Shown: piece by piece, positions 15,548-61,436 of the stretch
How the letters are laid out: each line of letters opens with the position of its first letter
How positions within the stretch are numbered: the first letter of the stretch is position 1
From: an uncultured Desulfobacterales bacterium
Lineage (GTDB): Bacteria > Desulfobacterota > DSM-4660 > Desulfatiglandales > HGW-15
Reading direction: 5' to 3'
Assembly (NCBI GenBank): GCA_964443135.1
Contig: CAYUBQ010000002.1
Location: 10,888-74,887 of the forward strand
DNA length: 64,000 nucleotides
Notes under the pieces: generated by a model
What the model saw: the letters and a program-made list of their open reading frames with translations, nothing else
What the model was told of the DNA's origin: nothing
Database searches by the model: none
Position numbers and translations under genes: made by a program

Positions 15548-15578
15548 GGGTCCTCTCCCTCGAAACCGACTGCGCGCC

Positions 15579-15614
15579 AAAAAAAAAGAGGCGGAGCCTG
15601 TGTGCTCCGCCTCT
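15579..15614 (-). terminator. strong Rho-independent terminator (minus strand)
   Basis: The minus strand reads AGAGGCGGAGC-ACACAG-GCTCCGCCTCT followed by T9, an 11-bp GC-rich stem with a poly-U tail. Confidence 0.8.
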
Positions 15615-15750
15615 TTCTGTTTCCCGTTGTGTTCAGTCGGGCTTTTGCACACACCTAGGCCATCCGGGTCCCCCGGTAAAGTAGATAAAATAAAAGCCCG
15701 GTGCGTGTGCGCGCATCATGATGGGTGTCGAATCTCCTGCTGCAAAACGT
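15579..15750 (-). ncRNA. candidate ~170-nt small RNA (or small-protein mRNA) between its own promoter and terminator
   Basis: Bounded by an A-tract + TTGACA-N18-TAACAT promoter and the terminator above. Contains an internal CGGGCUUUU...AAAAGCCCG long-range stem and a CCGGG/CCCGG hairpin. Family not recognised. Confidence 0.35.
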
Positions 15751-31393: not shown

Positions 31394-32497
31394 ATGCAGA
31401 ACCCGCCCTCTCCGGATCCGATCCGATTTCTCCGGTTCACCATGGACAACCTGCCCATCGGCGTGCTCACCGTGGACGCGAGCAGAAGGGTGACCAGCTT
31501 CAACCCGCAGGCCGAGACCGTCACCGGGTACTCGAAGGAGGAGGTGCTGGGAAGGTTCTGCGGCGAGGTGCTCCAGGGCGGCATGTGCAAGGAACAGTGC
31601 CCGCTGGCGAGCGTGATCCGGAGGCGGGCCCCCATGGTCCAGCTGGAGACCACCATCCGGGACCGCCACGGCAGGACCATCCCGGTCCGTCTTCAGACCG
31701 CCGCGCTGCTCGACGACGACGGCCGGCTCATCGGCGGGGTGGAGACCTTCCAGGACATCACCTACATCAAGGGCCTCGAGCGCGACAAGGCCGCATTCGT
31801 CTCCATGGTCGCCCACGACATGAAGTCGTCGCTCACCGTCATCGGGGGGTTCGCCCGCAGGCTCAGCAAGCCGCGGGTCCGGAAGAACGAGGAGAAGCTG
31901 GGACGGTATCTGGAGATCGTCCTGAACGAGACGGAACGGCTCGAGTCCATGATCCGGGACTTCCTGGAGTTTTCCCGGCTCGAGACCGGATCGCTCAAAC
32001 TGGAGTTCCGCCCCGTGTCCCTGAACGAGGTGATCGAGCAGCTTGCGGCCACCTACCAGGTGCAGGCGGAGCAGCTCGGGATCCGGCTGGAGGTGGGCAC
32101 CGACCCGGAGCTGGGGTCCCTGACCGCCGACGCCGAGCGCCTGAGACGGGTCTTCAAGAACCTCCTGGACAACGCGCTCAAGTTCTCCGACCCCGGGGGG
32201 AGGGTGAGGATCACCACGCAGGACGCGGGCCCCTTCGTGCAGGTCCGCGTCGAGGACGAGGGGGTGGGGATCGAAGAGGCGGAGCTGCCCCACATCTTCG
32301 ACCCCTACTTCCGCGCGAACAACCGGCCCGAGGCGAGCGGTTTCGGCGTCGGCCTCGCCGCGGTCAAAGCGGTGGTGGAAGGGCACGGAGGGCGCGTCGA
32401 GGTGGAAAGCGAGCCGGGACGCGGGTCCGTATTCACCGTCCACCTGCCCAGGGTCCCGGCGCCGGAGGACGCCGCGGCGCAGCCGGCGCGCAGCTAG
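31394..32497 (+). CDS. cytoplasmic PAS-domain sensor histidine kinase
   Basis: PAS domain (LPIGVLTVDASRRVTSFNPQAETVTGYSKEEVLG) with a Cys-rich insert, H-box FVSMVAHDMKSSLT, and N/G boxes. Start at MQNPPSP (31394). Confidence 0.88.
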   Translation: MQNPPSPDPIRFLRFTMDNLPIGVLTVDASRRVTSFNPQAETVTGYSKEEVLGRFCGEVLQGGMCKEQCPLASVIRRRAPMVQLETTIRDRHGRTIPVRLQTAALLDDDGRLIGGVETFQDITYIKGLERDKAAFVSMVAHDMKSSLTVIGGFARRLSKPRVRKNEEKLGRYLEIVLNETERLESMIRDFLEFSRLETGSLKLEFRPVSLNEVIEQLAATYQVQAEQLGIRLEVGTDPELGSLTADAERLRRVFKNLLDNALKFSDPGGRVRITTQDAGPFVQVRVEDEGVGIEEAELPHIFDPYFRANNRPEASGFGVGLAAVKAVVEGHGGRVEVESEPGRGSVFTVHLPRVPAPEDAAAQPARS

Positions 32498-32931
32498 CCC
32501 CGGACCGACTTTTTCATGTAGGACTCCAGGGCCTCCTGGAGGGTGGCCGCCGCGAGGAACGCACAGTGCCGATCCTCTTCCGGAAGACCGCCCAGAATGC
32601 CGAGAATGGCCTCGCCGGAGATCTCCGTGACCTCGTCCGGGCTCTTTCCCAGGGCCAGCTCCGCGGCGAACGACCCGCAGACCGCGCTGGAGCCGCAACC
32701 GTCGGTCCGGTAGGCCGCCTCCGAGACGCGGTCCTCCCGGAGACGCAGGAAGATCTCCATGGTGTCCCCGCACGAACCGGTGAGCCGCCCGTACCCGTCC
32801 GGATTCTCCAGGGCGCCTTCGTATCGGGGGTTGCGCCACCGTTCGTAGGCCACCTCCCCGTAGTCCTGCCTGGCTTCCTCGTAGACCTGCTCCTGCAGGT
32901 CGCGAACAAACGCGTCGAAATCGTCGGCCAC
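32494..32931 (-). CDS. NifU/IscU N-terminal-domain Fe-S cluster scaffold-like protein
   Basis: GSCGDTMEIFL...DGCGSSAVCGS...LPEEDRHCAFLAAATL, the three-Cys IscU pattern. GTG start (complement of 32929-32931) with AAGGAGGA 8 nt upstream. Confidence 0.8.
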   Translation of the reverse strand: MADDFDAFVRDLQEQVYEEARQDYGEVAYERWRNPRYEGALENPDGYGRLTGSCGDTMEIFLRLREDRVSEAAYRTDGCGSSAVCGSFAAELALGKSPDEVTEISGEAILGILGGLPEEDRHCAFLAAATLQEALESYMKKSVRG

Positions 32932-33072
32932 CGTCCTGGTCCTCCTTGATCTGCAGCCGGCCCCGGGGGCCGGCGCCGGTCCTGATGACGATCCATGGTG
33001 CCTGATACTGTTTTGAACTGCAACGCAAATTGATACCATGAAACCGCTCTCGAAACGATCGTGAAACAGGTC

Positions 33073-33101
33073 TTGACAACCATGTGTATACGGTATACAA
33101 A
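33073..33101 (+). promoter_or_regulatory. TTGACA -35 box followed by a perfect 7-1-7 palindrome TGTATACgGTATACA (33085-33099) covering the -10 region: promoter plus operator candidate
   Basis: TTGACA at 33073-33078, with TATACA/TACAAA at spacers of 15-17 nt. The palindrome is exact. Confidence 0.45.
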
Positions 33102-33152
33102 AGCGGTTCTGCATCGCTCTTTACCGTGAAAATACCCCTCGGTGGGCCGGGC

Positions 33153-33222: not shown

Positions 33223-33343
33223 GAAAACCCCTGTTTTCATCAGCGGGGGTGACCGGACGCCGGTCATGGACGTTTGAACCGAAACCCCGCCCGTCTGGAC
33301 AGGCCCCGCATCCTGCCGCCTGCGCTTCCGGAGGTTCGTGCTC

Positions 33344-35131
33344 ATGCTCTTTGACCTGCTCCTGTTCGGCTCTCTGGGCATCTTCCTGCTGGGAACGGCC
33401 TGGAAAATGTTCCCCTGGTTCTCCCGGGGGATCGGACCGGGCTCCCGGGGGATCCCACGGTCCCGAAGGGTCCGCGCCGCCCTTCTCGGCGCCGCCCGGA
33501 CCGTCTTCAGCCGGAACGTTCTGACCGTCTTTCGCGTCGTCCTCGTGGACGGCCTTCTCCAGTGGAGGATCCTCAAGGAGGACCGCCTCCGCTGGGTCAT
33601 GCACTTCTCCGTCTTCGCCGGGTTCATCCTGCTTCTCCTGATGCACGCCCTGGACGACCTGATCACGGCGAACCTGTTCGAATCCTACTACAGCACCGTC
33701 AACCCCTGGTTCTTCCTGCGGGACCTGGCCGGCGTGCTCGTGCTCGCGGGGCTCGCGCTGGCCGTGCTCCGGCGGACCGTCTGGAAGGTCCCCCGCCTGA
33801 GGACCCGGGCGCCGGACGTGATCGCCCTCGCCTTCCTGGCCCTGATCGTGGTCTCCGGCTTTCTGCTCGAGGGCGCCAAGATGGGCTCACACGACGCCTA
33901 CCTGCGCATGGTGGAGGAGTGGGCGGACCCGGACGCCGTCGATGAGGTCCGGGCCCTGGAGAGCTACTGGATCCAGGAGCTCGGGCTCTACGCCACGCAC
34001 CTCTCCCCGCCGTTCTCCGAGGACCGGCTGGCCCAGGGCCGCGAGCTCCACGAGATGAACTGCGCCTTCTGCCACGCCCCGTCCCAGTGGGCCTTTGCGA
34101 GCTACGGGGCGAACCGGGCCATGGCGCCTGCCGCCTCTTTCCTGGACCGGGTGGACGCGACCCTCGTCTTCTGGCACATCCACATCCTCGCCTGCTTCGC
34201 GGGGCTCGCCTACCTGCCCTTCAGCAAGATGTTCCACGTCGTCGCCACCCCAATCGGTCTCGTGGTCAGCAGGCTCACGGACCGGGAGCGCTCCGACGCG
34301 GCCAACGTCGCCACCCGTCAGGCCGTGGAGCTGGACGCCTGCACCCAGTGCGGGACGTGCAGCCTGAGATGCTCCCAGGCGGGTGCGGCCATGGCCATGG
34401 GCAACCCCTACATCCTTCCCTCGGAGCGAATGGCCTGTCTTCGGCGGGCGGGCCTGGGAGGCCGTCTCGAGCCGGCCGAGCGGGAGGCGATCCGCCGGGG
34501 CGCCGTCATCTGCTCCAACTGCGACCGGTGCACGGTGGTCTGCCCGTCGGGCATCAACCTGAAGGAGCTCTGGGTCTCAGTGCGGGAGGAGCTGATCCAG
34601 CAGGGGGACCCCGAGCCCGCCCTGCTCTCGCCGTTTTCCCATCTTCGCGGCCTCCGGAGGGACGATCTGGAGGCGGTGACGGACTACGCCCGTCCCCTGA
34701 GCCGGGCCCTGCACGTCCTCGTCCCCAACGGGAAGGCCCGAGCGCCCGAGGTCGAGGCCCCGCCCCTGGACCTGACGGAGCAACCGGACATGCCGGTGGA
34801 CCCCGACCTGGAGTCGGGGCACTTCGCCGACTGCTTCGGCTGCCGGACCTGCACCTCCGTCTGCCCTGTGGTGGGCAACTACGAGGACCCCGAGCAGACC
34901 CTCGGGCTCCTGCCCCACCAGATCATGTACTGCCTGGCCCTCGGGATGCCGGCCATGGCTTCCCGGTCCCGCATGCTCTGGGACTGCGTCACCTGCTACC
35001 AGTGCGAGGAGCACTGCCCGCAGGGCGTGCGCATCACGGACATCCTCTACACGCTGAAGAATCGCGCCGTTCGGGTCGAGGCAGGCCGCGCTGCGCCTTC
35101 CCCGGCCGAGGAGCGGACCGGGCCGGCCTAG
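33344..35131 (+). CDS. fusion protein: NarI/HdrE/DsrM-like 5-TM cytochrome-b-type membrane domain (with a CXXCH loop) plus a cytoplasmic domain with four CxxCxxCxxxC iron-sulfur motifs (HdrC-like)
   Basis: TM helices with positive-inside loops and a terminal-helix motif LPFSKMFH. Cys motifs are CTQCGTCSLRC, CSNCDRCTVVCP, CFGCRTCTSVCP and CVTCYQCEEHCP. ATG 33344 preferred (GGAGG 9 nt upstream) over the track start at 33338. Confidence 0.8.
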   Translation: MLFDLLLFGSLGIFLLGTAWKMFPWFSRGIGPGSRGIPRSRRVRAALLGAARTVFSRNVLTVFRVVLVDGLLQWRILKEDRLRWVMHFSVFAGFILLLLMHALDDLITANLFESYYSTVNPWFFLRDLAGVLVLAGLALAVLRRTVWKVPRLRTRAPDVIALAFLALIVVSGFLLEGAKMGSHDAYLRMVEEWADPDAVDEVRALESYWIQELGLYATHLSPPFSEDRLAQGRELHEMNCAFCHAPSQWAFASYGANRAMAPAASFLDRVDATLVFWHIHILACFAGLAYLPFSKMFHVVATPIGLVVSRLTDRERSDAANVATRQAVELDACTQCGTCSLRCSQAGAAMAMGNPYILPSERMACLRRAGLGGRLEPAEREAIRRGAVICSNCDRCTVVCPSGINLKELWVSVREELIQQGDPEPALLSPFSHLRGLRRDDLEAVTDYARPLSRALHVLVPNGKARAPEVEAPPLDLTEQPDMPVDPDLESGHFADCFGCRTCTSVCPVVGNYEDPEQTLGLLPHQIMYCLALGMPAMASRSRMLWDCVTCYQCEEHCPQGVRITDILYTLKNRAVRVEAGRAAPSPAEERTGPA

Positions 35132-35186: not shown

Positions 35187-36020
35187 ATGAAGACCTATGC
35201 ACTCTACCTGGGCTGCAACATCCCCGCGCGGGTCCAGTCCTACGAAACGGCGTCCCGCGCGGTCCTGGAGAGGCTCGGGGTTCGGCTCCTCGACAGTCGG
35301 GAGTTCGCCTGCTGCGGATACCCGCTGAGGAACCTGGACCGGGGCGCCTATCTCCTCTCCGCCGCCCGCAACCTGGCCCTGGCCGGCCGCACGGGACACG
35401 ACATGCTGGTCCTGTGCAGCTGCTGCTTCGGCTCCCTCAAGGCCGCGCAGCACCAGCTCCGCCGTTACCCGGAAGCGCGCAGGGAGGCGGACCGGAGGCT
35501 CCGCCGGGAAGGTCTCCGTTACGACGGCGACATCGAGGTCAAGCACCTTCTGAGCGTCCTCCGGCACGACGTCGGGCTGGAGGCCCTGAAGACCCACATC
35601 AGACGTCCATTCGAAGACCTCAGGATCGGGGCGCACTACGGGTGCCACGTCCTTCGGCCCAGCCACGTCACGGAGTTCGACGACCCCGTCGCACCCACCC
35701 TGTTCGAGGCCCTCGTCGAGGTCACCGGGGCCCAGTGCGTCGAGTGGGACCCGCGGATGGACTGCTGCGGGGCGCCCCTGCTGGGCGTGAACGACGAGCT
35801 CAGCCTGGACCTGACGCGCGGCAAGCTGAGGAAGGCCGCCGAGGCCGGGGTGGACCACCTGTGCACGGCCTGCCCCTACTGCCAGCTTCAGTTCGAAACG
35901 GTCCAGCGGAAATGGATCGCGGGAAACGGAAGCGGCACACCGGCGGTGGCCTCCCTGGTCTACCCCGAGCTGCTGGCCCGCTGCATGGGCCTGGAAGACG
36001 AACGGTTGAAACGGCCATAA
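35187..36020 (+). CDS. hdrB: heterodisulfide reductase subunit B-like (two CCG domains)
   Basis: LGCNIP...ACCGYP...LCSCC and YGCHVL...DCCGAPLL...CTACPYC. Confidence 0.88.
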   Translation: MKTYALYLGCNIPARVQSYETASRAVLERLGVRLLDSREFACCGYPLRNLDRGAYLLSAARNLALAGRTGHDMLVLCSCCFGSLKAAQHQLRRYPEARREADRRLRREGLRYDGDIEVKHLLSVLRHDVGLEALKTHIRRPFEDLRIGAHYGCHVLRPSHVTEFDDPVAPTLFEALVEVTGAQCVEWDPRMDCCGAPLLGVNDELSLDLTRGKLRKAAEAGVDHLCTACPYCQLQFETVQRKWIAGNGSGTPAVASLVYPELLARCMGLEDERLKRP

Positions 36021-36074
36021 CCCCCCGGGGGAGCCCTTCGAGGGGCGAAGCCGGGGTCTCATCCGGAGCGGAAC

Positions 36075-39000
36075 GTGAAACGCGAAGAAACAGGCGCGGT
36101 ACTGGTTGTTGGAGGGGGAATCACCGGAATGCAGTCGGCGCTGGACCTGGCCAACTCCGGTTTTTTCGTCTATCTCGCGGAGCGATCGAGCTCGATCGGG
36201 GGAATGATGTCCCAGCTGGACAAGACCTTCCCCACCAACGACTGTGCCATGTGAATCATCTCGCCCAAACTGGTCGAGGTCGGCCGGCACATCAACATCG
36301 AGCTGCTCACGCTCACCGAGGTCAAGGAGATCACCGGGGAGCAGGGGGACTTCCAGGTCCGCGTGGTCCGGCACCCCCGGTACGTGGACGTGGACAAGTG
36401 CATCGCCTGCGGCGCCTGCACCGAGAAGTGCCCCCGCAAGGTCCCGGACGAGTACAACGAGAGCCTGGTCCCCAGAAAGGCGATCTACGTGAAGTACGCC
36501 CAGGCCGTTCCCCTCAAGTACGCCATCGACCCGGAGCAGTGCATCAAGCTGACCCGGGGGAAGTGCGGGAACTGCGCCAAGGTGTGCCCCACCGGGGCGA
36601 TCGACTACGAGGACACGGAGAAGGAGAACGTCCTTCGGGTCGGCGCCGTGGTGCTCGCCGACGGATCGGAGACCTACGACCCCGGGGGGCACGACACCTA
36701 CGGCTACAGGAAGAACCCCGACGTGGTCACCAGCATCGAGTTCGAACGGATGCTCTCCGCCTCGGGTCCCAGCGGGGGACACCTGGTCCGCCCTTCGGAC
36801 GGGAAGGAGCCGTCCCGGATCGCCTGGCTCCAGTGCGTGGGATCCAGGGAGCCGGCCCTGGGAAACCGCGGCTACTGCTCCGGCGTCTGCTGCACCTACG
36901 CGGTCAAGGAGGCGGTGCTGGCCAAAGAGCACTGCGGGGGGGACCTGGACGCGGCCGTCTTCTACATCGACATCCGAACCACCGGAAAGGACTTCGAGCG
37001 CTACTACGAGCGCGCCAGGGAGGAGCAGGGGGTCCGCTTCGTCAAGGCCAGGATCTCGCACCTCGCCAGGCGGAACGGGTCGAACCTCATTCGCTACGTG
37101 GACGAAGCGGGCAAGCGGGTCGAAGAGCCTTTCGACATGGTGGTCCTCTCCGTAGGCCTCGGCGCGAACCGGAAGAGCGCCGAGCTGGCCGAGACCCTGG
37201 GCGTCCAGATGGACCCCTACCGGTTCGTGAGCACGAGCAGCTTCCACCCGGTTCGGACCTCGAGGCCCGGGATCTACGTCTGCGGCGCCCACCAGGCGCC
37301 CAAGGACATCCCCTCCTCCGTGGTGGACGCCAGCGCGGCCGTCGTCGAGGTGGCCGCCGATCTGGCCGACACGCGCTGGACGCTCACCCGGACCGCCGAG
37401 CTCCCCGAGGAGCGGGACGTGCGCGGCGCCCCCCCGCGGATCGGGGTGTTCGTCTGCTGCTGCGGCACCAACATCGCCGGGGTCGTGGACGTTCCTTCGG
37501 TCGTGGAGTACGCCCGGTCCCTGCCCGGGGTGGCCTACGCGGAGGAGAACCTGTTCAGCTGCTCCCAGGACACCCAGGACAAGATGACCCGGATGATCCG
37601 GGAAAAAGGGCTCAACCGGGTGGTGGTGGCCGCCTGCACGCCCAAGACCCACGAGCCGCTCTTTCAGGAGACTTTGACCAGCGCGGGCCTGAGCAAGTAT
37701 CTCTTCGAGATGACCAACATCCGCAACCAGTGCTCCTGGGTACACCGGGACCAGCCCGAGGCCGCCACGCAGAAGGCCAAGGAGCTGGTCGCCATGTCCG
37801 TGGCCAAGGCGAGCCGCCTCACCCCCCTGAGCGAGCCGGTCCTGGAGATCACCCCGACCGCCCTGGTCGTCGGGGGCGGCATCGCCGGCATGGAGGCGGC
37901 GAGGAGCCTCGCCAACCAGGGGTACCCCACCTACCTGGTCGATCGGAACCGGCGTCTCGGGGGGCAGGCCCTGACCCTTCACGAGACGTGGAGAGGGGAG
38001 TCGATCCAGGCCTATCTCTCCGAGCTGATCGAGGACGTCGAGCTGCACCCCGGGATCCAGATCTTCCTGAAGGCCGAGGTGGACGAGGTGGACGGGTTCG
38101 TCGGCAACTTCCGGACCATGATCCGCCAGGGCCGCGAGAGCCGGATGATCGAGCACGGCGTGACCATCGTGGCCACCGGCGCGCTCGAGTACAAGCCGCG
38201 CGAGCACCTCTACGGGGAGCACCCCAACGTGGTCACCGGACTGGAGCTCCAGGACCGGCTGATCCGGGAGGACCCCTCGCTTCGCGAAGCCCGGACCGCG
38301 GTGTTCCTCCAGTGCGTCGGGTCCCGCATCCCGGAACGCCCTTACTGCTCCAAGGTGTGCTGCACCCAGTCCATCAAGAGCGCGCTGGCCCTGAAGGGGA
38401 TCAACCCTTCCATGCGGATCTTCGTCGTCTACCGGGACATGCGGCCCTACGGGCTGAGGGAGGACCTGTACCGGAAGGCGAGGGAGGCGGGCATTATCTT
38501 CATCCGCTACAGGTCGGAGGAGGGCTTCGACGTGGTCTTGGAGGACGGGCGACTGCGGACGGCCTTCACGGACACCGGCCTGCACCGGAAGATGGAGATC
38601 CACCCGGACCTCCTGGTGCTGGCCTCCGCCGTGGTCCCGAGCGAGCAGTCGCGGCTCGCTCAGCAGTTGAAGATCTCCCGGAACGACGACGGGTTCTTTG
38701 CGGAGGCCCACGTCAAGCTTCGCCCGGTCGACTTTTCCACCGAAGGGGTCTTTGTCTGCGGGCTGAGCCACGCCCCCAAGCCCGTGGACGAAAGCATCGC
38801 CCAGGCCCAGGCTGCGGCGGCCAGGGCTGCGACCCTTCTTGCGGCCGGGCGGATCCCGGTGAGCGGAACGGTGGCGGCCGTGGATCCGGATCTGTGCAGC
38901 ATGTGCGGAGTATGCGCTTCCATCTGCCCCTACTCCGCTCCCGGCGTGGACGAAAAGACCGGCAGGATGAGCATCCAGAGCACCCTGTGCAAAGGCTGCG

Positions 39001-39089
39001 GGCTGTGCACAGCCTCCTGCCGGTCCGGGGCGATCCGGTTGAACGGCTTTGACAACAACCAGATCCTGGCGATGATCGAGCAGGTGTGA
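36075..39089 (+). CDS. hdrA: tandem HdrA-type FAD/Fe-S flavoprotein (QmoA-like module fused to a full HdrA/QmoB-like module), with in-frame TGA at 36252-36254 read as selenocysteine
   Basis: GTG 36075 (GGAG upstream) opens the same frame as track ORF 36363..39089. N-terminus is [19 protein letters not shown]...[20 protein letters not shown] second FAD fold is [19 protein letters not shown]. Also present are YCSGVCC and YCSKVCC motifs and four ferredoxin-type CxxCxxCxxxCP motifs. Confidence 0.75.
36258..36280 (+). promoter_or_regulatory. candidate bacterial SECIS hairpin downstream of the in-frame UGA
   Basis: AUCUCGCC / CAAACU loop / GGUCGAGGU, an 8-bp stem with one G-U pair and one bulged U, beginning 4 nt after the UGA. 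Confidence 0.35.
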
Positions 39090-39128: not shown

Positions 39129-39584
39129 ATGATCGAGATCATCCAGCTCAAGAGCATCCGCATGCTCGGCAATCTCACGGACGAGATGCTCGAGAAGATC
39201 CAGCCCGTCACCACCCTCGTGGATTTCCAGGCGGGGGAGTACATCTTCCGGGAGGGGGAGTACGCGGAGTACCTCTACTCGATCCTGGACGGGGAGGTGG
39301 GGCTGGAGACCGAGAAGAACCCTTCCAAACGCATTCTCGTCACCAAGATCAGCCGGTGCATGACCCTGGGCTTCTCGGCCCTCCTGGACACCGAGTACCG
39401 AAAGTACGTCGGGTTCGCCAAGGCGATCACCGACGTGAAGCTCTTCGCCTGGAAGGGCGTGGAGCTGGAGAAGCTCTTCGTCAACGACTACGAGATGGGG
39501 TTCCTGATCATGCGGCGCATCGCAAACACCATCCAGAAGCGACTCCAGATCACCAAGACCCAGCTCGTGGACATCTACCAGTAG
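39129..39584 (+). CDS. cyclic-nucleotide-binding (cNMP/Crp-type beta-barrel) domain protein without an HTH
   Basis: FQAGEYIFREGEYAEYLYSILDGEVGLE...RCMTLGFSALL, the cNMP-binding fold. At 151 aa there is no DNA-binding domain. Confidence 0.75.
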   Translation: MIEIIQLKSIRMLGNLTDEMLEKIQPVTTLVDFQAGEYIFREGEYAEYLYSILDGEVGLETEKNPSKRILVTKISRCMTLGFSALLDTEYRKYVGFAKAITDVKLFAWKGVELEKLFVNDYEMGFLIMRRIANTIQKRLQITKTQLVDIYQ

Positions 39585-45811: not shown

Positions 45812-46651
45812 ATGAAATTGAAACCAAGCCTCGACACCTGGCTCTGCTTCTACGGGCTGGAGGCCCCTCCCGAGGCCTACGCCCGGTTCGACCTGGTGGT
45901 CTTCGACAGCACCTGGCACCCCGACCTGGTGCGGAGGGAGGACGGGGGGCCCGTGATCCTGGGCTACCTGAGCGCGGCCGAGGTCCTGGAGGGGGGGCCC
46001 TTCTGGCCCCGGGCGGCGGGGCGGGACATCCTGGTCCGGAAGAAACCCCAATGGAACTCCTGGGTCCTGGACCTGCGCGACCCGGCCTGGCGGGATTTCC
46101 TGGTCCGCGAGGCGGTGCCCGGGATCCTGGAGCAGGGCTTCGACGGCATCCTCCTGGACACCCTGGACTCGGCCCTGGCCCTGGAGCTCTGGACGGACCC
46201 GGCCCGCTGGCGCGGGACCCGGGAGGCCGTGATCCGGCTGGTGGAGGAGATCCGCCGCTCCCGGCCGGACACGCTGATCGCGGTCAACCGGGCGCTCCCG
46301 GTCCTGGGGGAGATCGCCCCCTCTCTGGACCTCCTGGTCCTGGAGGGCCTCTCCAGTGTCTACGGAGGCCCGGGGACCGGGTACGTGCCCGTTGCGCCGG
46401 AGGAGCGGCGGCGCCTCCTCGAATGGCTGGAGGCGGGCCGGGCAGAGCGGCCGGGGCTCCCGGTCCTCACCCTGGACTACGCCCCGGAGGACCGGCCGGA
46501 CCTCGTGAACAACGCCGTGGCCCGGGCCCGGCGGAAAGGATTCGTCCCCTATGTCAGCACGCTCGAGCTGGACCGGATCTACCGTCACACGCTGGACGGC
46601 GGCTGCACTCCTGGCGGCGCTCCTCGCCCTTCCGGCGGCGGCGCCGGCTGA
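45812..46651 (+). CDS. TM1410/GH114-like putative glycoside hydrolase (PelA hydrolase-domain analogue), no obvious signal peptide
   Basis: WLCFYG...VILGYLSAAEV...WNSWVLDLRDPAWRDFLV...GFDGILLDTLDSA, the TIM-barrel pattern of this family. Confidence 0.65.
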   Translation: MKLKPSLDTWLCFYGLEAPPEAYARFDLVVFDSTWHPDLVRREDGGPVILGYLSAAEVLEGGPFWPRAAGRDILVRKKPQWNSWVLDLRDPAWRDFLVREAVPGILEQGFDGILLDTLDSALALELWTDPARWRGTREAVIRLVEEIRRSRPDTLIAVNRALPVLGEIAPSLDLLVLEGLSSVYGGPGTGYVPVAPEERRRLLEWLEAGRAERPGLPVLTLDYAPEDRPDLVNNAVARARRKGFVPYVSTLELDRIYRHTLDGGCTPGGAPRPSGGGAG

Positions 46652-48668
46652 GGTCCCTCTCCAGAGAAAGGTGCTGGTGCTCCTGGACCGGGAGGGCCCC
46701 CGGGCCCATCTGGAGAACATCGTCTACGAGACCTGCCAGATGGTGCTCAACTACTACGGCATGCTGCCGGAGTACCGGAACGTCGACGCCGGCCCGCTTC
46801 CCGGCGACGAGGCCATGGCCGCCTACCGGGGCGTGATCACCGCCTTTTCCGGGAGCGGGCCCGAGGACTCGAAGGCGTGTCTGGCGTGGCTCCTCCGGCA
46901 GATGGAGGCCGGCCGGAAGCTGATCGTGCTCGGCTCCCTCGGCGTGCCGGCGTCCGGGGACCCCGAGTCCGAGGCGGACCGCCTGGCGAGCGACGTCTAC
47001 GGCGGGCTGGGCCTCCGGCACGAGGGGAACCACACCGGCGTCCGGTCCCTTCTCCGGTACGCACGCAAGGACCCCGCAGGGATGGAGTTCGAGCGGGACC
47101 TCCCCGCCTTTCCGGAGATCTACGAGCAGTACGTGCCCACGGACGAGGACCTCCACGTCTTTCTGAGCGTCCGTCGGATCGACCGGCCCGAGTCCGAGAG
47201 CGCCGTGGTCGTCACGGGACCCGCCGGCGGTTTCGCCATGGTGGAGTACATGCGGTGGCAGGACCCGGTCACCTTCAAGAAGCAGTGGTACCTGGACCCG
47301 TTCCGGTTCTTCCGCGAGGCCCTGGGCCTCGAGTCCGCGCCCGCTCCCGACCCCACCACCCTGAACGGCCTCCGGGTGGCGATCTCCCACGTGGACGGCG
47401 ACGCGTTCAGCGGCCTCTCCCGCATCGACGACGACCAGCGCCTGTGCGGGGAGGTGATCCGGGACCGGGTCCTGGAGCGGTTCGACTTCCCCGTGACGGT
47501 CTCGGTCATCACCGGGGAGGTGGCCCCCGAGGCCCTGGGGAGCGAGCGGTTGAAGGAGCTCGCCCGGGAGATCTTCGCCCTGCCCAACGTGGAGCCTGCG
47601 AGCCACTCCTACTCCCACCCGTACTACTGGGACCCCGCCTTTTCCGGCAAGAGCCGCTACCACCGGCTCCACGGGATCGAGATCCCGGGCTACGCGTTCG
47701 ACCCGGCCGTGGAGATCGACGGGTCCGTGGCCTACATCAACCGGGAGCTGGCCCCGCCCCACAAGCCCTGCCGGGTGTTCCTCTGGACCGGGAACTGCGA
47801 GCCCCGGGCCTCGGACCTGGCCCGGTGCGACCGGCTGGGGCTCCTGAACATGAACGGGGGCGACACGCTGTTCGACGAGCTGTCCGACTCCTACACTTCC
47901 GTGGCCCCCTACTACCGGAACGTCCGGGGGGAGATCCAGGTCCACACGGGGCAGGCCAACGAGACCATCCTCACCAACCTGTGGGAGGGTCCCTATCAAG
48001 GCTACCGGAACGTCATCACCACCATGGAGCGGACCGGCTCGCCCCGCAGGGTGGCCCCCATCGACATCTACTACCACTTCTACAGCGCCGAGTACCCGGC
48101 GTCCCTCGAGGCTCTCCAGGACGTCTACGCCTGGGCCCTCGGGCAGGAGACCGCCCGCATGTTCACCTCCCGGTACCTGGAGATGGTGCAGGGATACCTG
48201 GACGCAGGCATGCGTCGGCTCGGGCCCGGCCGCTGGGAGGTTCGGGACTACGGCGCCTGCACCACCGTCCGGTTCGAGGACCCGTCCCTCCGGGTGGACC
48301 CGGGCCGGTCGGAGAACGTCCTCGGGTGGATCCGGGGGCCCCAGGGGCTCTTCGTCTCCCTGGCGCCCGACCGGGAGCGGGCCGTGGTCCAGCTGTCGGA
48401 GAACGCCGTCCCGCCCCGGGAGGCCCCACCCTGCGTGCGAAAGGCCGGCGGGCGGGTGGAAATCGTCGGGAGGGAGGAGAACCGGCTGTCTCTCCGGTAC
48501 CGGGGCTTCGGCGAGGGGATGATCCAGATCGCCGGGCTGGAGCCCGGCCGGACCTGCACGGTCTCGGGCTCCGCCCTGGGGGAGAGCGGGTTCCGGCGCG
48601 CCCCCGACGCCGACGGAACCCTGACCCTGAGCCCCGTCTTCACGGGCACGCTGGAGGTCTCATGGTGA
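46551..48668 (+). CDS. secreted polysaccharide deacetylase-like protein (CE4-type motifs; PelA deacetylase-domain analogue)
   Basis: Signal peptide WTAAALLAALLALPAAAPA. ISHVDGDAF (Asp-Asp-type motif 1) and SHSYSHPYYW (H-x-x-x-H motif 2). Overlaps the preceding gene by 101 nt in another frame. Confidence 0.65.
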   Translation: MSARSSWTGSTVTRWTAAALLAALLALPAAAPAEVPLQRKVLVLLDREGPRAHLENIVYETCQMVLNYYGMLPEYRNVDAGPLPGDEAMAAYRGVITAFSGSGPEDSKACLAWLLRQMEAGRKLIVLGSLGVPASGDPESEADRLASDVYGGLGLRHEGNHTGVRSLLRYARKDPAGMEFERDLPAFPEIYEQYVPTDEDLHVFLSVRRIDRPESESAVVVTGPAGGFAMVEYMRWQDPVTFKKQWYLDPFRFFREALGLESAPAPDPTTLNGLRVAISHVDGDAFSGLSRIDDDQRLCGEVIRDRVLERFDFPVTVSVITGEVAPEALGSERLKELAREIFALPNVEPASHSYSHPYYWDPAFSGKSRYHRLHGIEIPGYAFDPAVEIDGSVAYINRELAPPHKPCRVFLWTGNCEPRASDLARCDRLGLLNMNGGDTLFDELSDSYTSVAPYYRNVRGEIQVHTGQANETILTNLWEGPYQGYRNVITTMERTGSPRRVAPIDIYYHFYSAEYPASLEALQDVYAWALGQETARMFTSRYLEMVQGYLDAGMRRLGPGRWEVRDYGACTTVRFEDPSLRVDPGRSENVLGWIRGPQGLFVSLAPDRERAVVQLSENAVPPREAPPCVRKAGGRVEIVGREENRLSLRYRGFGEGMIQIAGLEPGRTCTVSGSALGESGFRRAPDADGTLTLSPVFTGTLEVSW

Positions 48669-51268
48669 GCCCGGAGAATGCCGGGAAGGAGCTGGACCCG
48701 GCCACGGAACCCACCGGATCCAAAGCCGCTTCCGGCTACAACCGCCTCTCCCTGATGCGGTTCCGGGCGTGGCAGATTCTCCTCGTGCTGCTGGTGCTGG
48801 CCGGGGTCTCCTTTCTCCTGTTCCCGCGCGAGCGGAGGCTCGTCGACTTTCACCTGGAGCGGGGCCGGACCCGGGACGCCCTGGTCGAGCTCGACCGCAT
48901 GCTGAGGAAGAGGCCGACCGACCCGGCGCTCCTGGAGCTCGCGGCCGAGACCCGCTTTCGAGCCGGCGACATGGAGGAGGCGATCCGCCTGCAGGAGCAG
49001 GCCGCCCGGCTCTCCCCGGGGGACAAGAGCGCCTGGGAACGGCTCGCCCGGTTCCACGAGTGGAGCCGGAACCCGGCGGAGGCCCTCAGGGTCTACGAGC
49101 GCATCGCCTCCCTGGAGCCCGCGGACCGGGCGGCCCGGGAGAAGATCATCGAGTACGCCCGCTACCTGGGGCGCACCGACCTGGAGGCTGCGGCCGTGGC
49201 GAGCCTCCTGGAGCACGGCGAGGAGCCGGGCCCCGGGGAGGAGCCCCTCCTTCGGGAGCTGACCCGGACCCTGAAGGCCCTGGCCGGGGAGCGAACAGCC
49301 GGTGGGGAGGATCCCCTGCTCGACGAGCTTCTGGTCCGGCTCCACCTGGTGCGATCGGACCTCCTCGAGGAGCGGGGCGAGACCGGGATCTCCGAGGCGG
49401 CCCGGACGGACGCGGCGGAGGCCGCCCTCCACTTCTTCCTGGTGAACGGCCGGCTGGACGACGGCCGAGCCTTCGGCCGGCGTCTGGACCGGAGTCTCCA
49501 GGAGGGCGTGGCCTTCCGCCGGACCTGGGTGGACCTCCTCCGCTGGAACGGGCTCCCGGAGCGTGCCCTGGCCCTGCTGGACGAACTCCTCCAGGAGGAG
49601 CCCGGGAACCGGGAGCTCCTGCGCCTCGCCGGGGAGATCGCCGCTCGGACCGGAAACGTCCGGCGGCTCGCCCTCTCGCTCGAGGAGCAGCTTCGGCTCG
49701 ACCCGGAGTCCGAGAGGCTTCGGGCCTCCCTGGCCGAGCTCTACCGGTTCTCCGGCGATCCCGGCCGGGCCGTTTCCCTGTACGAGGCCCTCCACCGGGA
49801 TCACCCCCGGAACCGGGCCTACCTGGACGCCATGCTTGCAGCGGCCGAGGACGCCGCCGACCCCGCGATCAAGGTGCGGGCCGCGGATTTGGCGGCCGGT
49901 GTGGATCCCCGGGACGCCGACCTCCTCGAACGGCGGGCGGAGCTCTACCTGGCCGCGGAGAAGCCGGGAAAGGCCTGGCCCCTCCTGAGCGTTCTGGCCG
50001 GGCGGGCCGGGGGGGACGAGAAGGCGGTCCGGAGGATGCTCGAGGTGGCCGGGTACACGGACGATCCGGGGACCCTGAAGAAGGCCCTGTCCCAGGCCCT
50101 CTCCCTGAGGCCGACGGACCGGGACCTGCGCCTGGAGGCTGCGGACGCCTTCCTCTGGCTGGAGGGGCCGGAGCGGGCCTACCGGGCCCAGCTCGAGCTC
50201 GTGAAACAGGGCGGCGCCACGCGAGAGGACGTGTTCCGTCTGATCGAGCTGGCCCTGTTCACGAACCGGCCCGAGAACGAGCGGGAGGCCGTGACGCTGG
50301 CCGCCCGGCGGCTCCGGGGACCGGAAGTGCGCGTCCTTCGCGACCGCGCCGCGCAGCTCCCGGAGGGCCTCTCGGACCAAGAAATGCTCGCGGCCGTTCG
50401 GACCTACCTGGATCGGCACCCCGGGGACACCGCCTTCCGGGACCGCCTGATCCGGCTCTACATCGAGTCCGGACGCCCGGGCCGGGCCGCGCCCCTCCTG
50501 GCCGACCGGTCCGAACGGTCCCCCGGCGACCTTCAAAAGGCCCTGGACGCGGGGGAGGCCTATCTCCAGGCGGACCGGCTGAAGCAGGGCCTTCCCTACT
50601 TCGAACGGGCCCTGGCCCTCGACCCGGGGAACGCGGCTCTCCAGAGACGGCTGGTGACCTACCACGGCTGGCTCGGGATGCGGGAGGAGCAGATCGCCGG
50701 GCTGATCCGGCTCGAGGAAGAGGGCCTCCTGGAGCCCGGGGAGCGGACCCGGCTGGCCGGGGCCCTCCTGGAACGGGGAGAAGGGGAACGCGCCCTGGAG
50801 ATCCTCCGGCCTGTGGAGGACCGGGACCCCCTGCCGAAGGAGGGAGGGATCCTCCTGGCCGCGGCCTACGACGCCGCCGGGCAGCGGGAGCGGGCCCTCG
50901 CCGTTTACGAGAGGCTCGCGCGGGACCACCGGGACGACCCGGCCCTCCTGGCCGAGCTGGGGGACCGGGCCCTCTGGCTGGACCGGCTGCCCGCCGCCCT
51001 GGCATTCTACGAGGCGGCCCTGCGGCTCGAGCCGAAGAACCTCCGCGCGCTCAAAGGAAGCGGCCAGATCTACGCCTGGAACAACAACCCGGAGCGGGCC
51101 ATCGCCCGGTTCGAGGCCTACAACCGGCTCGAGCCGGACGACTTCGAGGTGCGGTACCAGCTGGGGGAGCTCTACTTCGCGAACGAGCGGAAAGGTGCGG
51201 CCTTCAAGGAGTACCGGAAGACCCTGGGCCTGATCGACCGGAGGAAAAAGGCCGTCACTCCTCCTTGA
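48662..51268 (+). CDS. membrane-anchored multi-TPR protein (PelB N-terminal TPR-scaffold analogue)
   Basis: One N-terminal TM (WQILLVLLVLAGVSFLLF) followed by about 800 aa of TPR hairpins. ATG 48662 overlaps the deacetylase stop (ATGGTGA). It is the in-frame tail of track ORF 46877..51268. Confidence 0.7.
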   Translation: MVSPENAGKELDPATEPTGSKAASGYNRLSLMRFRAWQILLVLLVLAGVSFLLFPRERRLVDFHLERGRTRDALVELDRMLRKRPTDPALLELAAETRFRAGDMEEAIRLQEQAARLSPGDKSAWERLARFHEWSRNPAEALRVYERIASLEPADRAAREKIIEYARYLGRTDLEAAAVASLLEHGEEPGPGEEPLLRELTRTLKALAGERTAGGEDPLLDELLVRLHLVRSDLLEERGETGISEAARTDAAEAALHFFLVNGRLDDGRAFGRRLDRSLQEGVAFRRTWVDLLRWNGLPERALALLDELLQEEPGNRELLRLAGEIAARTGNVRRLALSLEEQLRLDPESERLRASLAELYRFSGDPGRAVSLYEALHRDHPRNRAYLDAMLAAAEDAADPAIKVRAADLAAGVDPRDADLLERRAELYLAAEKPGKAWPLLSVLAGRAGGDEKAVRRMLEVAGYTDDPGTLKKALSQALSLRPTDRDLRLEAADAFLWLEGPERAYRAQLELVKQGGATREDVFRLIELALFTNRPENEREAVTLAARRLRGPEVRVLRDRAAQLPEGLSDQEMLAAVRTYLDRHPGDTAFRDRLIRLYIESGRPGRAAPLLADRSERSPGDLQKALDAGEAYLQADRLKQGLPYFERALALDPGNAALQRRLVTYHGWLGMREEQIAGLIRLEEEGLLEPGERTRLAGALLERGEGERALEILRPVEDRDPLPKEGGILLAAAYDAAGQRERALAVYERLARDHRDDPALLAELGDRALWLDRLPAALAFYEAALRLEPKNLRALKGSGQIYAWNNNPERAIARFEAYNRLEPDDFEVRYQLGELYFANERKGAAFKEYRKTLGLIDRRKKAVTPP

Positions 51269-52277
51269 CCTTCGCCTCGAAGTGCTCGAAGGCGTCGACG
51301 ATGTCCAGATAGACGCCGTCGAACCCCGCGTCGACGATCCGGTCCAGGGCGGACGCCTCCCCGCCCATCAGGATGCGCCGCCACGCCTCCATCCAGTACT
51401 TCACCTTGTAGTTGCCCGGCCAGTCCGGGTTCTCCTCCCCGAGCCAGGGCGGGGGGGAGCTCTTCCACTCCGGCTTCCAGTAGGGCCGGTACTCCTCGGC
51501 CTCGCCGATGCTCATGTAGGCCAGCACGAAGCGGTTTCCCCCGCACGCCTTCTGCCGGAGCGCCGCGACCTCCCGGCGCGAGAAGGGGACGTCGCCGTGG
51601 AAGAAAGGATCGGTGACGACCATGTCGTACCGGGTCTCCCGCACGGCGTCCACGAAGGCGTCCCGGTCGGTGTAGCTGCACATGTTCAGGAGGTAGAGGA
51701 AGTTCTCGGCCTCCGCCGGCGAGGAAAGGGGGCGGCAGTGGTGTCGAAACGGGCGGGCCGGGTGGGCGGGAATGCGGTCCAGGGCCCGGCTGGTCGCGGC
51801 GAAGCCGATGTATCCCCGCCCGCTGTTGAGCCGGTAGGAGCGCTCGACCTGCTCCCGGCTCCGGCAGTAGTCCGTCACCAGGACCAGAAGGCCGCTTTGC
51901 TGCGCCACCGCCAGAAGCCCGTTCAGCCGGCGCCGGACCGCCTCCGGCGTGGGTCGGCCCAAGCCGCCGTACCCGAAGAACAGGCTCTCCTGGCCCACGC
52001 CGTCGACGGCCGCCACGTACCGGGCCGACACCCGGTCCCCGGGGTCCCCGCCCTCGGTCAGGAGCTGGAGCCCGTTCTGGGGCACCACGAGGAACCCGGG
52101 CCGCTGCTCCCGGGCGTAGGCGCCGATGCGCACCACCAGGTCCCGCATCTCCGCGCGGTAGTCGCGGGGCCTGCTGCCCTCGGGCTCGTCCTTACGCGGG
52201 GCCTCGCGCGTGCAGCCCCCCAGGAGGAGCAGGGAGAGAAACAGGACACAGCTCGTGGGGAAAGCGATCGCTCGCAT
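51255..52277 (-). CDS. MJ1477/TM1410-family (GH114-like) putative glycoside hydrolase lipoprotein
   Basis: Lipobox LLLLGGC. YMSIGEAEEYRPYW...WPGNYKVKYW...GFDGVYLDIVDAFE. Last gene of the minus-strand pel operon. Confidence 0.78.
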   Translation of the reverse strand: MRAIAFPTSCVLFLSLLLLGGCTREAPRKDEPEGSRPRDYRAEMRDLVVRIGAYAREQRPGFLVVPQNGLQLLTEGGDPGDRVSARYVAAVDGVGQESLFFGYGGLGRPTPEAVRRRLNGLLAVAQQSGLLVLVTDYCRSREQVERSYRLNSGRGYIGFAATSRALDRIPAHPARPFRHHCRPLSSPAEAENFLYLLNMCSYTDRDAFVDAVRETRYDMVVTDPFFHGDVPFSRREVAALRQKACGGNRFVLAYMSIGEAEEYRPYWKPEWKSSPPPWLGEENPDWPGNYKVKYWMEAWRRILMGGEASALDRIVDAGFDGVYLDIVDAFEHFEAKVKEE

Positions 52278-52365
52278 GGTTCACGGTCCTTGGGGTGGTC
52301 TTGTCCGGGGAACGTATGGTTTCGTCATCCCCGCGTGTGGATCCTGTCCTTTTTGACCCTCGAGG

Positions 52366-53757
52366 TCAACCTGTTTCGGCGCTGCCCTGCACACGCAGGT
52401 CCGAGGCCCGTCGAAACACCTGGTACTCCAGGCCTCCCACGGTCCGGTTCACGAGGAAGAAACCGGCCGCAGCGGCCGTCAAGGAGGCGGCCAGGAAGCC
52501 GGTCCCGTGGAATCGCCAGCCCGCCTCGATGGAGAGCAGGGTGAAGACGGCGTTCAGCAGGCAGAACAGCCCGTTCAGCCTCAGCAGGAGGCCGTACTCG
52601 TCGAGGTACTGGATGATGAGAAAGTAGAAGAAGTAGAGGGAGAAGAAGATGGTGCCGGTCAGCAGGTAGTGGAACACGAAGGGGTTGGACCACGGGATGG
52701 GGACGATGCCGATGTAGACCAGGAAGAGGACGAGCATGCAGGCCCCGCCGTAGAACAGGAACAGGGAGGAGGAGGTCTGGGCGATCCCGCCGAACAGCTT
52801 CTCCTTCTCCACGGCCAGCTCCCGAAAGGGGAAGTTGTTCGAGAGCTTGAAGATGAACCGCTCGTAAGGGCCGTTGATGCTCCTCTTGATGCCCTTGTAG
52901 ATGATCAGGGAGCCGACCATCATGATGGTCAGGGCCACGAAGAACGGAAAGTCGTACTCCCCGTAGAAGTGAAACACCCCGTCCACGGACTTCCCGGTGG
53001 CCGGGTGAAACCAGAAGAGGATCTTGTCCACCCAGAACCCGAACATGAACAGGAATGCGGACAGACCGATCCGCCCGGCCTGGGCCCGTTTCAGGAAGGC
53101 GTCGTCCAGGCGGACCTCCGCGCGGAGGTAGAGCTTTACCACGTAGGAGTACCCGCCCGCCGCCGGGATCGCCACGCCGATGGAGAAGAAGAGGAGCAGG
53201 GCCTGGGTCTCCGTCATGCGGGTGGCCCCGAAGAGGATCAGGGTGGTCCCCATGCCGAGCCCGAACAGCTTCAGGAGCAGACGCTCGCGGCGCACCGAGC
53301 TGAGGACCGTGCCGATGCACCAGAACAGGCTCAGAACGGCGGTGAGACCGATGAAGGTGATCTTGAGGTTCACGTCGATGGAGGAGAACGGCACCACCAG
53401 CACGGCGGCGAGCAAAAGGGCCAGCACGGTCACCAGGATGGTCAGGACCATGAGGCTGTTGACGATGTCGTGAAACGTCCCCAGGTAAACCTTGTCCGCC
53501 ATGTGGCGGGTGAACAGGGTGTGAAAGGGGGAGGTGAGGACGAGAGAGAGGGCGGTCGCATAGGTGACGAGGAGGTAAAAGAGCACGGGAGCGCGGCTCG
53601 TCATCAGGTGAACGGTGACGCCCATCACGGCCAGGCAGAAGATGGTGAGAAACCACGCGCCCACCGCCTCGAAGGAGTCCAGCGACTCCTCGAGGAGGAG
53701 CCTGGTCATGGAGGGCCGGCGCTTCAGCCGCTCAACCAGCCGTACGATATCGCCCAT
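52366..53757 (-). CDS. pelG: PelG-like polytopic membrane protein (Pel exopolysaccharide export/polymerisation component)
   Basis: About 12 TM helices, about 460 aa, directly downstream of pelF. The assignment rests mainly on size, topology and conserved gene order. Confidence 0.65.
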   Translation of the reverse strand: MGDIVRLVERLKRRPSMTRLLLEESLDSFEAVGAWFLTIFCLAVMGVTVHLMTSRAPVLFYLLVTYATALSLVLTSPFHTLFTRHMADKVYLGTFHDIVNSLMVLTILVTVLALLLAAVLVVPFSSIDVNLKITFIGLTAVLSLFWCIGTVLSSVRRERLLLKLFGLGMGTTLILFGATRMTETQALLLFFSIGVAIPAAGGYSYVVKLYLRAEVRLDDAFLKRAQAGRIGLSAFLFMFGFWVDKILFWFHPATGKSVDGVFHFYGEYDFPFFVALTIMMVGSLIIYKGIKRSINGPYERFIFKLSNNFPFRELAVEKEKLFGGIAQTSSSLFLFYGGACMLVLFLVYIGIVPIPWSNPFVFHYLLTGTIFFSLYFFYFLIIQYLDEYGLLLRLNGLFCLLNAVFTLLSIEAGWRFHGTGFLAASLTAAAAGFFLVNRTVGGLEYQVFRRASDLRVQGSAETG

Positions 53758-61237: not shown

Positions 61238-61436
61238 GGAAATCCCGGCGGAAGGAGGTGCCCCGGAAAGCCTCGTTCGATCCAAAACCTAATGGTTTTC
61301 TTCCGTGATTGTCAACGAATTCAGCTTGCAACCGAATCGGGTCGAGCCTCCGGTTTCCCCGCCTTGTCAAACCCGCCGCGATCTTCTAGGGTGGACGGAG
61401 TCGAACGCCCGCCCCGGGACGACGGAGGAAAGAGCC

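Follow-up and report, generated by a model that had tools for sequence, protein, structure and literature searches.

A fused double-HdrA gene of an uncultured Desulfobacterales bacterium very probably encodes selenocysteine at an in-frame TGA codon

We analysed a 64,000-nucleotide stretch of contig CAYUBQ010000002.1 from an uncultured Desulfobacterales bacterium (the window), which contains a gene for an HdrA-type flavoprotein interrupted by a TGA codon at positions 36252-36254. This codon is very probably read as selenocysteine (Sec), in which case the gene product would be a 1004-residue selenoprotein made of two fused HdrA-like units. We favour this reading because the TGA occupies a known Sec position, orthologues encode cysteine at the same position, and a downstream RNA hairpin is constrained only in those gene copies that carry TGA.

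An open frame of 1004 codons spans the TGA

The frame begins at a GTG codon, runs for 59 codons to the TGA at 36252-36254, and continues to a second TGA at 39087-39089, for a total of 1004 residues. Its main features are as follows, all on the plus strand:

36075-39089, plus strand: full predicted selenoprotein gene for a fused double HdrA-like FAD/iron-sulfur protein (1004 codons plus TGA stop; from translation)
36065-36068, plus strand: Shine-Dalgarno-like GGAG, 6 nt 5' of the GTG at 36075 (read from the sequence)
36075-36077, plus strand: GTG start codon, the sole start past an in-frame TAA at 36018-36020
36243-36245, plus strand: TGT codon for Cys57, first residue of the CxxU pair (U, Sec), aligned with Cys194 of the HdrA in PDB entry 5ODC
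36252-36254, plus strand: in-frame UGA, proposed Sec60, aligned with Cys197 of 5ODC HdrA and residue 197 of 9sfi_A
36363-36365, plus strand: GTG chosen by callers of open reading frames (ORFs) for a 908-aa product, not the real start (from the ORF list)
39087-39089, plus strand: TGA, true stop of the HdrA-type gene (homologues end there; the next gene starts at ATG 39129)

No ATG, GTG or TTG codon occurs in frame between the TAA at 36018-36020 and position 36075, so the GTG at 36075 is an unambiguous start. The N-terminus that it specifies can be aligned with the M-x-K-D/E-K-x-G-x-V pattern at which full-length homologues begin. The first-pass annotation had proposed this start, the GGAG upstream of it, a frame shared with the ORF at 36363-39089, and the N-terminal peptide that results; all four were confirmed in the sequence. 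The mechanical ORF list holds only the 908-aa piece (36363-39089), in the same frame as the GTG at 36075, and a start at 36363 would remove both the GxGxxG FAD fold and the CxxU motif. In the long piece, G+C is distributed over the codon positions as in a real gene: at third codon positions (GC3) it is 0.93, against a window G+C of 67%. The GC3 of the 59-codon head is weaker at 0.73, yet it is the best among the three frames of that segment.

Orthologues carry TGA or a cysteine codon at the same position

The sequence around the codon reads FPTNDC-A-M-U, with the TGA at the second cysteine position of the HdrA motif FPTxDCxxC. Residue 60 aligned without gaps to Cys197 of HdrA in the HdrABC-MvhAGD crystal structure (5ODC); Cys57 aligned with Cys194, and K278 with Lys409. 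In the same column, 9sfi_A has a non-standard residue, X197, within FPTDDCAM-X-ILAPK. Residue 197 of PDB entry 9sfi is Sec197 of Methanococcus maripaludis HdrA, which forms a Cys-Sec bridge (PMC13518236).

We then compared this position across gene copies using a genome scan with one genome per species, which yielded 80 loci, all in the Desulfobacterota (Desulfobacterales, Desulfatiglandales, Syntrophales, and relatives). Across the scanned genomes and the window, the motif codon was TGA in 71 gene copies (70 without the window), TGT in nine, and TGC in three. The 59 upstream codons abutted the downstream part in every scanned locus, with identities of 62-98%, and tblastn likewise placed the N- and C-terminal parts contiguously at all loci. 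Thus, the placement of the TGA at the second cysteine of the motif, as had been claimed from the sequence, holds both as a TGA/TGY pair and as a gap-free match to residue 197, and Cys- and Sec-type HdrA homologues alike match at codon 60. The accompanying claim that Sec is known at this position in HdrA of methanogens and Deltaproteobacteria is borne out by published work (PMC13518236, PMC1794560, PMC1976440, PMC2702500).

A protein-database search with the readthrough product as the query, of which we evaluated the 120 best hits, gave a consistent picture. The eight nearest proteins were 76-98% identical, 899-918 aa long, and covered approximately 90% of the query; the closest (P0001) starts where the ORF at 36363 starts. 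More distant proteins (61-68% identity) were 1006-1013 aa long and begin MPKDKTGSVMVVGGG...FPTNDCAMC. Among the 120 best hits, 31 were full length with cysteine and 89 were N-terminally truncated. The truncated entries, at 899-954 aa compared with a full length of about 1006-1013 aa, lack the first 50-105 residues, and nine of them start with the SPK motif, at most 1-2 residues from the motif position. This pattern of close but truncated and distant but full-length, Cys-containing proteins is the one expected of gene callers that stop at a Sec codon, and the 89 truncated entries are a systematic mis-annotation in public collections. They confirm the expectation that standard ORF calling drops the FAD-binding N-terminus. 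The translation, the length of the full-length Cys homologues, and the contiguity of the two parts at all loci agree with the proposed gene length of 1004 rather than 908 codons.

A conserved hairpin follows the TGA

We aligned the 60 nt from the TGA onward in all copies, numbering from the U of UGA, and found one RNA element that distinguishes the TGA copies from the Cys copies:

36270-36287, plus strand: proposed bacterial selenocysteine insertion sequence (SECIS) hairpin, CUGGUCG-AGGU-CGGCCGG, with a 7-bp stem, starting 15 nt after the UGA

Nucleotides 19-36 of the 71 TGA copies read CUGGUCGAGGUCGGCCGG with nearly no exceptions. The third positions at nt 24, 27, 30, and 33 (Val, Glu, Val, and Gly codons) showed zero variation in these copies; at the same four positions of the 12 Cys copies, 13 of 48 site-sequences vary. 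The Cys copies still encode LVEVGR, using variable codons (GTA, GTG, GAA, GTT, GGA, AGA, AGG). Outside the hairpin, four-fold sites of the TGA copies (Ser nt 12, Pro nt 15, and nt 54, 57, and 60) had entropies of 1.6-1.8 bits. Counted over eight hairpin sites capable of synonymous change, deviations from the consensus numbered 5/568 in TGA copies and 20/96 in Cys copies, compared with 381/852 at flanking third positions in TGA copies. Fisher tests gave p = 7e-14 for TGA versus Cys copies and p = 2e-95 for hairpin versus flank, values that ignore sequence relatedness and hence overstate significance.

The structure follows the same division. The stem was intact in 70 of 71 TGA copies and in 2 of 12 Cys copies; the apical loop AGGU (36277-36280) was invariant in TGA copies and was AAGU in five of the 12 Cys copies. 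Pairing across the TGA copies reached 99.8%, with a double change from C-G to U-A in two loci (L019 and L055). Tandem paralogues of the fused HdrA gene at L043 (2750-9681) and L046 (4280-about 11200) each carry the TGA and the identical 18-nt hairpin. The hairpin is also the minimum-energy structure of its region and, folded alone, has an energy of -9.1 kcal/mol (z = -3.3). The downstream RNA hairpin is under selection in TGA copies only. We propose that the SECIS lies at 36270-36287, with SelB binding and hairpin-dependent readthrough predicted.

The element can be compared with the SECIS of Escherichia coli fdhF. Both are in-ORF stem-loops just 3' of the UGA whose upper stem is short and GC-rich and whose loop contains GGU; we take the fdhF loop to be AGGUC, which the window loop AGGU resembles. 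The two differ in that the window stem lacks a bulged U and shows visible constraint on 18 nt only. Counting from the U of UGA, the loop G/U occupies nt 27-29 in the window, compared with what we take to be nt 23-24 in fdhF. The spacing of the window hairpin is presumably within the range used by bSECISearch.

The first-pass annotation had instead offered a different hairpin, at 36258-36280 (8 bp, a bulged U, and the loop CAAACU), as the candidate SECIS. The two hairpins overlap and are mutually exclusive. Sec insertion directed by the 36258-36280 hairpin would account for its good folding alone (-8.3 kcal/mol, z = -3.0) and for the 91% of alignment cells that are paired. Comparison across copies argues against it: pair 12-24 (G36263-C36275) was broken in 39 of 70 copies and pair 7-29 in nine, no pair showed a compensating change, and shuffles of the 71 aligned sequences scored as well. 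The synonymous sites under its 5' arm vary freely (entropy up to 1.64 bits), and its apparent conservation arises because its 3' arm consists of the 5' arm and loop of the frozen hairpin at 36270-36287. Its loop begins 14 nt away, counted from the U of UGA, and lacks an early G, which we take to be a misfit to the bSECISearch model of bacterial SECIS elements. The proposed folding was thus reproduced, and the role was not, since the conserved element is the hairpin at 36270-36287; we regard the 36258-36280 hairpin as very unlikely to be the functional SECIS.

When we searched the window for a second copy of the conserved hairpin, the only match was one with three mismatches at 48881-48898 (CTGGTCGAGCTCGACCGC), which is at chance level. 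No adjoining in-frame TGA was seen at that match.

Alternatives to selenocysteine insertion

A genuine stop at 36252 would leave a 59-residue peptide and a separate protein of approximately 908-944 residues, restarted downstream. Gene callers report such products for 89 of the 120 closest entries, and a GTG is available at 36363. The codon after the TGA is, however, ATC, ATT or GTN, with no conserved start, and the restart sites differ among genomes. A restart at 36363 would also delete the GxGxxG fold and a conserved segment, which form one continuous stretch in Cys homologues and in the HdrA structures solved so far, and it would leave the frozen hairpin without a role. We therefore consider termination at this codon extremely unlikely.

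An equally poor prospect is readthrough of the UGA as Cys, Trp or Gly, through near-cognate reading or a reassigned code. Cysteine does function at this position in 12 orthologues. Against this, TGA ends 19 of the 38 predicted genes in the window, including the HdrA-type gene, so the genetic code is standard and the recoding local; reassignment of the code was rejected on this basis. The conserved stem-loop 15 nt downstream in TGA copies is, in addition, the bacterial signature of SelB-dependent insertion. TGA-bearing orthologues were also found in lineages documented as Sec users, i.e., in metagenome-assembled genomes (MAGs) of the Olavius delta-1 symbiont (L022), which has a documented selenoproteome (PMC1976440), and of Desulforapulum autotrophicum (L064), whose strain HRM2 has selABCD (PMC2702500).

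A further alternative is that sequencing or assembly introduced the TGA, or that it arose by a recent nonsense mutation, so that the gene would be a pseudogene or would really have TGC or TGT here. In its favour, a one-base change to TGC or TGT would restore the cysteine of 12 orthologues, the source is apparently an assembly from an uncultured organism, the nearest relatives in the genome scan are MAGs, and the 908-aa ORF product of the window has no entry in the contig collection. The alternative is nevertheless effectively refuted: 70 gene copies have the same TGA in genomes that were assembled independently, each with intact coding sequence before and after it, and the hairpin is under purifying selection in TGA but not in Cys copies.

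Several observations weigh against the Sec reading itself. We detected no selA, selB, selD or tRNA-Sec within the 64-kb window (ARAGORN found no tRNA, and Pfam was run on approximately 50 ORFs). In its 40-nt context (a region of 40-49 nt), the 36270-36287 hairpin was not more stable than shuffled GC-rich sequence (z = -0.35), so folding energy cannot decide the matter and the case for the hairpin rests on comparative data. Six of the seven stem pairs are invariant, and covariation is confined to the remaining one. Rfam returned no family at the gathering threshold in the window and, around the hairpin at E <= 10, only a chance microRNA match. Finally, the loop presumably sits 5 nt farther from the UGA than in E. 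coli fdhF.

On the Sec reading, which we consider very probable, a ribosome reaching the UGA at 36252-36254 would encounter the hairpin at 36270-36287, which would recruit SelB.GTP.Sec-tRNASec, and Sec would be inserted as residue 60 in place of termination. Both SelB binding and Sec insertion are predicted here from the standard bacterial mechanism.

Cysteine has probably replaced selenocysteine repeatedly

In a crude neighbour-joining tree, built from the 400 residues downstream of the codon, the Cys copies formed about five distinct clades that branch from within the Sec copies. Two Cys copies, L037 and L059, have the shortest branches to Sec relatives and retain an intact hairpin; in three others (L042, L048, and L050), stem pairs and the loop G have been lost. 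This distribution fits repeated replacement of Sec by Cys followed by decay of a dispensable SECIS, with a clade count that is not firm.

The protein is predicted to be a fused HdrA pseudo-dimer

Pfam searches of the 1004-residue protein identified two FAD/Rossmann regions and several 4Fe-4S domains, and alignment with solved structures resolved two modules:

36090-37367, plus strand: HdrA-like module 1, residues 6-431 (phmmer to 5odc_A 143-566, E = 2e-118)
37407-39080, plus strand: HdrA-like module 2, residues about 445-1002 (aligned to 8rvu_a 3-243 and 323-650)

Module 1 is built around a thioredoxin-reductase-like FAD domain into which a 2x[4Fe-4S] ferredoxin domain is inserted; it bears the CxxU pair as well as Lys278, and has neither the N-terminal nor the C-terminal domain of HdrA. 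In module 2, the [4Fe-4S] domain of the HdrA N-terminus is present, together with a second FAD domain, this one devoid of an inserted ferredoxin, and a ferredoxin domain at the C-terminus. Module 2 also lacks the Cys pair, since different residues replace DKTFPTxDCxxC at the motif position. By these alignments, the predicted protein joins two HdrA units, whose domain losses complement each other, into a single chain as a fused pseudo-dimer.

In methanogen HdrA, Cys197 ligates the N-terminal-domain cluster of the partner protomer, and where HdrAs are fused or in tandem, Cys197 and the N-terminal domain occur in a complementary pattern (PMC9012536). As predicted from its sequence, the 1004-residue protein shows exactly this complementarity. 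A 2026 cryo-EM study of the M. maripaludis complex reported selenosulfur-bond density, with Sec197 located between FAD and cluster A3, and proposed a Cys-Sec electron shuttle, a role that its authors call unresolved (PMC13518236). In the window protein, module 1 would place Cys57-x-x-Sec60 beside FAD, and module 2 would supply the N-terminal [4Fe-4S] domain that the equivalent of residue 60 faces in crystallised HdrA dimers. Methanococcus Sec197 and Cys59-Cys62 of BamE suggest by analogy that the most likely role of the Cys57-Sec60 pair is either to cycle between the selenol/thiol and selenenylsulfide forms or to ligate the cluster.

The gene lies in a conserved operon with membrane-linked partners

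Three further genes flank the HdrA-type gene on the same strand:

33338-35131 (start approximate), plus strand: protein with a NarI-type membrane domain and two HdrC-like 4Fe-4S dicluster domains (Pfam Nitrate_red_gam and Fer4 families)
35187-36020, plus strand: HdrB-like protein with two CCG cysteine-rich domains (Pfam CCG, E = 5e-22, two stretches)
39129-39584, plus strand: 151-aa cyclic-nucleotide-binding-domain protein (Pfam cNMP_binding), possibly encoded by the last gene of the operon

The order of membrane/HdrC-like, HdrB-like, and fused HdrA genes recurs in most of the 80 loci, and an HdrB-like gene lies directly 5' of the HdrA gene in nearly all loci with enough flank. The cNMP-binding gene occupies the same position in L001-L006 and L018. 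From domain content and gene order, we infer that the operon may encode a membrane-anchored Hdr-type complex with a high-potential branch reaching the quinone pool; the HdrB-like and NarI/HdrC-like proteins would carry this branch to menaquinone. More tentatively, and with some doubt on our part, the three products could form an uncharacterised quinone-coupled, flavin-based bifurcating or confurcating complex, a membrane-anchored counterpart of BamDE/HdrABC present in many Desulfobacterota. A literature search returned no description of this three-gene unit (NarI/HdrC-like, HdrB-like, and fused HdrA), which is weak evidence of absence.

Between 39087 and 39130, high-GC3 sequence continues in the same frame after the TGA stop and runs into the cNMP-binding gene. 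In a scan of the window for in-frame TGA codons flanked on both sides by high-GC3 coding sequence, 39087 was the only one returned. We rejected it as a second Sec codon: the C-termini of homologues and the separate downstream gene in L001-L006 point to a true stop.

Some loci depart from this arrangement. The Cys-type orthologue at L037 (5185-15041) has a BamDEF-like arrangement, with an HdrD-like gene combining iron-sulfur and CCG domains upstream and two MvhD/FlpD genes downstream. A few kilobases upstream in the same locus are a sulfur-transport-family gene and a gene annotated as 'putative Se/S carrier protein-like' (PF11823). At L043, the tandem pair is followed by two iron-sulfur proteins and an NAD/FAD-binding (DHODB-type) protein, which replace the membrane partner.

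Just upstream of the operon in the window is a PAS-HisKA-HATPase sensor kinase gene (31397-32497, plus strand), with an 88% identical counterpart at the same position in L001, a locus of the 97%-identical MAG CAYVVQ01, and weaker kinase matches upstream in L022, L032, L034, L041, L054, and L068. A gene for a NifU-N-like iron-sulfur scaffold protein (32497-33114, minus strand) also lies just upstream of the operon.

Comparison with related systems

Relative to Methanococcus HdrA (9sfi), the window protein has the same motif, FPTxDCAM-U-I-x-x-PK, with the proposed Sec at the same aligned position 197, and module 1 shares the FAD domain with its inserted ferredoxin and the conserved lysine (K278). 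The window protein differs in being a fusion with complementary domain loss rather than a homodimer, and its predicted partners are a membrane cytochrome-b/HdrC-like protein and an HdrB-like protein instead of MvhAGD or soluble HdrBC. The gene is also bacterial, with a bacterial-type hairpin inside the ORF; in archaea, the SECIS is placed in an untranslated region.

The same architecture is that of BamE, a subunit of the class II benzoyl-CoA reductase of Geobacter metallireducens, described as a fused HdrA dimer with a non-bifurcating second unit; its N-terminal unit has the bifurcating FAD, Lys280, and a Cys59-Cys62 pair, which one of the conformational states shows as a disulfide (bioRxiv 10.64898/2026.04.10.717634). 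Compared by published description, both proteins are fused HdrA dimers of approximately 1000 residues with a Cys pair and a lysine in the N-terminal unit, and the numbering is shifted by two (Cys57-Sec60 and Lys278 here; Cys59-Cys62 and Lys280 there). The soluble BamD resembles an HdrB/HdrC fusion, whereas the window encodes separate HdrB-like and membrane-anchored HdrC-like proteins. By Pfam, no tungsten AOR (BamB), FlpD/MvhD (BamF) or Nuo-type (BamGHI) domains were found in the window, and BamC was not near the gene. The neighbours are instead the NarI/HdrC-like, HdrB-like, and cNMP-binding genes, not a bamBCDEFGHI cluster, so the protein has the architecture of BamE but was rejected as BamE itself.

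QmoABC consists of separate QmoA and QmoB flavoproteins and of QmoC, in which an HdrC-like part precedes cytochrome b, and it is encoded beside aprBA (PMC3333476). We rejected this identity as well: the flavoproteins are fused here, the order within the membrane protein is reversed (membrane part first), and an HdrB-like CCG protein is present. No aprBA genes were seen in the window by Pfam on its ORFs.

A further point of reference is EMO, the ETF:menaquinone oxidoreductase. The EMO/HdrDE/HdrF proteins of D. autotrophicum have NarI-type, HdrC-like, and HdrB-like CCG blocks in common with the window operon, which differs in that the blocks are divided between two genes, with the break behind the HdrC-like part, in that this part is present in duplicate, and in that the linkage is to a fused HdrA rather than to ETF (bioRxiv 10.64898/2026.08.18.745454; PMC2702500).

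HdrA (COG1148) is listed as a CxxU selenoprotein family, and several HdrA copies, including hdrA-hdrA fusions, occur in Deltaproteobacteria (PMC9312934; PMC1794560; PMC1976440). Sec-containing HdrA has been described in Syntrophobacter fumaroxidans, Syntrophus aciditrophicus, D. autotrophicum HRM2, and the Olavius delta-1 symbiont (PMC1794560, PMC1976440, PMC2702500). The genome papers of D. autotrophicum and Desulfococcus multivorans report Sec-containing HdrA genes (PMC2702500, PMC5109826), and that of D. multivorans also reports a Sec-containing BamE together with selA, selB, and selD (PMC5109826). The window gene belongs to the same family and phylum as these deltaproteobacterial genes and is split at the TGA in the same way. 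In those papers, Sec-hdrA genes mostly lie beside mvhD/frhD hydrogenase-type genes, whereas the window operon has none.

Significance

The ORF in the window and 89 of its 120 closest database entries are without the FAD-binding fold and the Cys-Sec pair, so any inference from their domains or structures starts from a decapitated protein. The corrected gene would also mark the organism as a Sec user and bears on the reading of other TGA-interrupted genes in its genome. In addition, the orthologue set constitutes a natural experiment, with 71 Sec copies, 12 Cys copies, at least five apparent switches from Sec to Cys, and decaying hairpins. It bears on what Sec adds at the HdrA flavin site, a question called unresolved in the recent structural work (PMC13518236).

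Current understanding is unchanged by these findings: HdrA has counted as a textbook selenoprotein family ever since selenoproteomes were first surveyed, and since it has long been known as a CxxU family, the novelty is low. The result is a correct but ordinary annotation fix; the conserved, membrane-linked unit of three genes may be worth studying in its own right.

Other features of the window

Two ORFs of 568 and 705 aa (13949-15652, minus strand, and 46551-48665, plus strand, respectively) have a strong coding G+C pattern and no Pfam match at E <= 1e-5. The interval of approximately 2.6 kb at 48668-51255 contains no ORF that passes a simple GC3 filter, and very long ORFs overlap there on both strands. 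The ORFs at 8677-9969 and 19863-20942 gave weak matches to IS200-like Y1 transposases (E about 1e-5 to 5e-7), the match at 8677-9969 reaching none of the per-stretch thresholds. Both ORFs could represent transposase genes that are degenerate or REP-associated.

On the minus strand, 51258-55339 holds a Pel-like exopolysaccharide cluster that encodes a GH114 domain protein, a PelG-family exporter, and a protein with DUF3492 and glycosyltransferase-1 domains; adjoining it, at 56190-57413, are ORFs without a Pfam match. Farther along the same strand, 57848-61285 encodes a signalling protein of 1146 aa with FHA, GAF, several PAS, SpoIIE phosphatase, and HATPase_c_2 (anti-sigma-kinase-like) domains.

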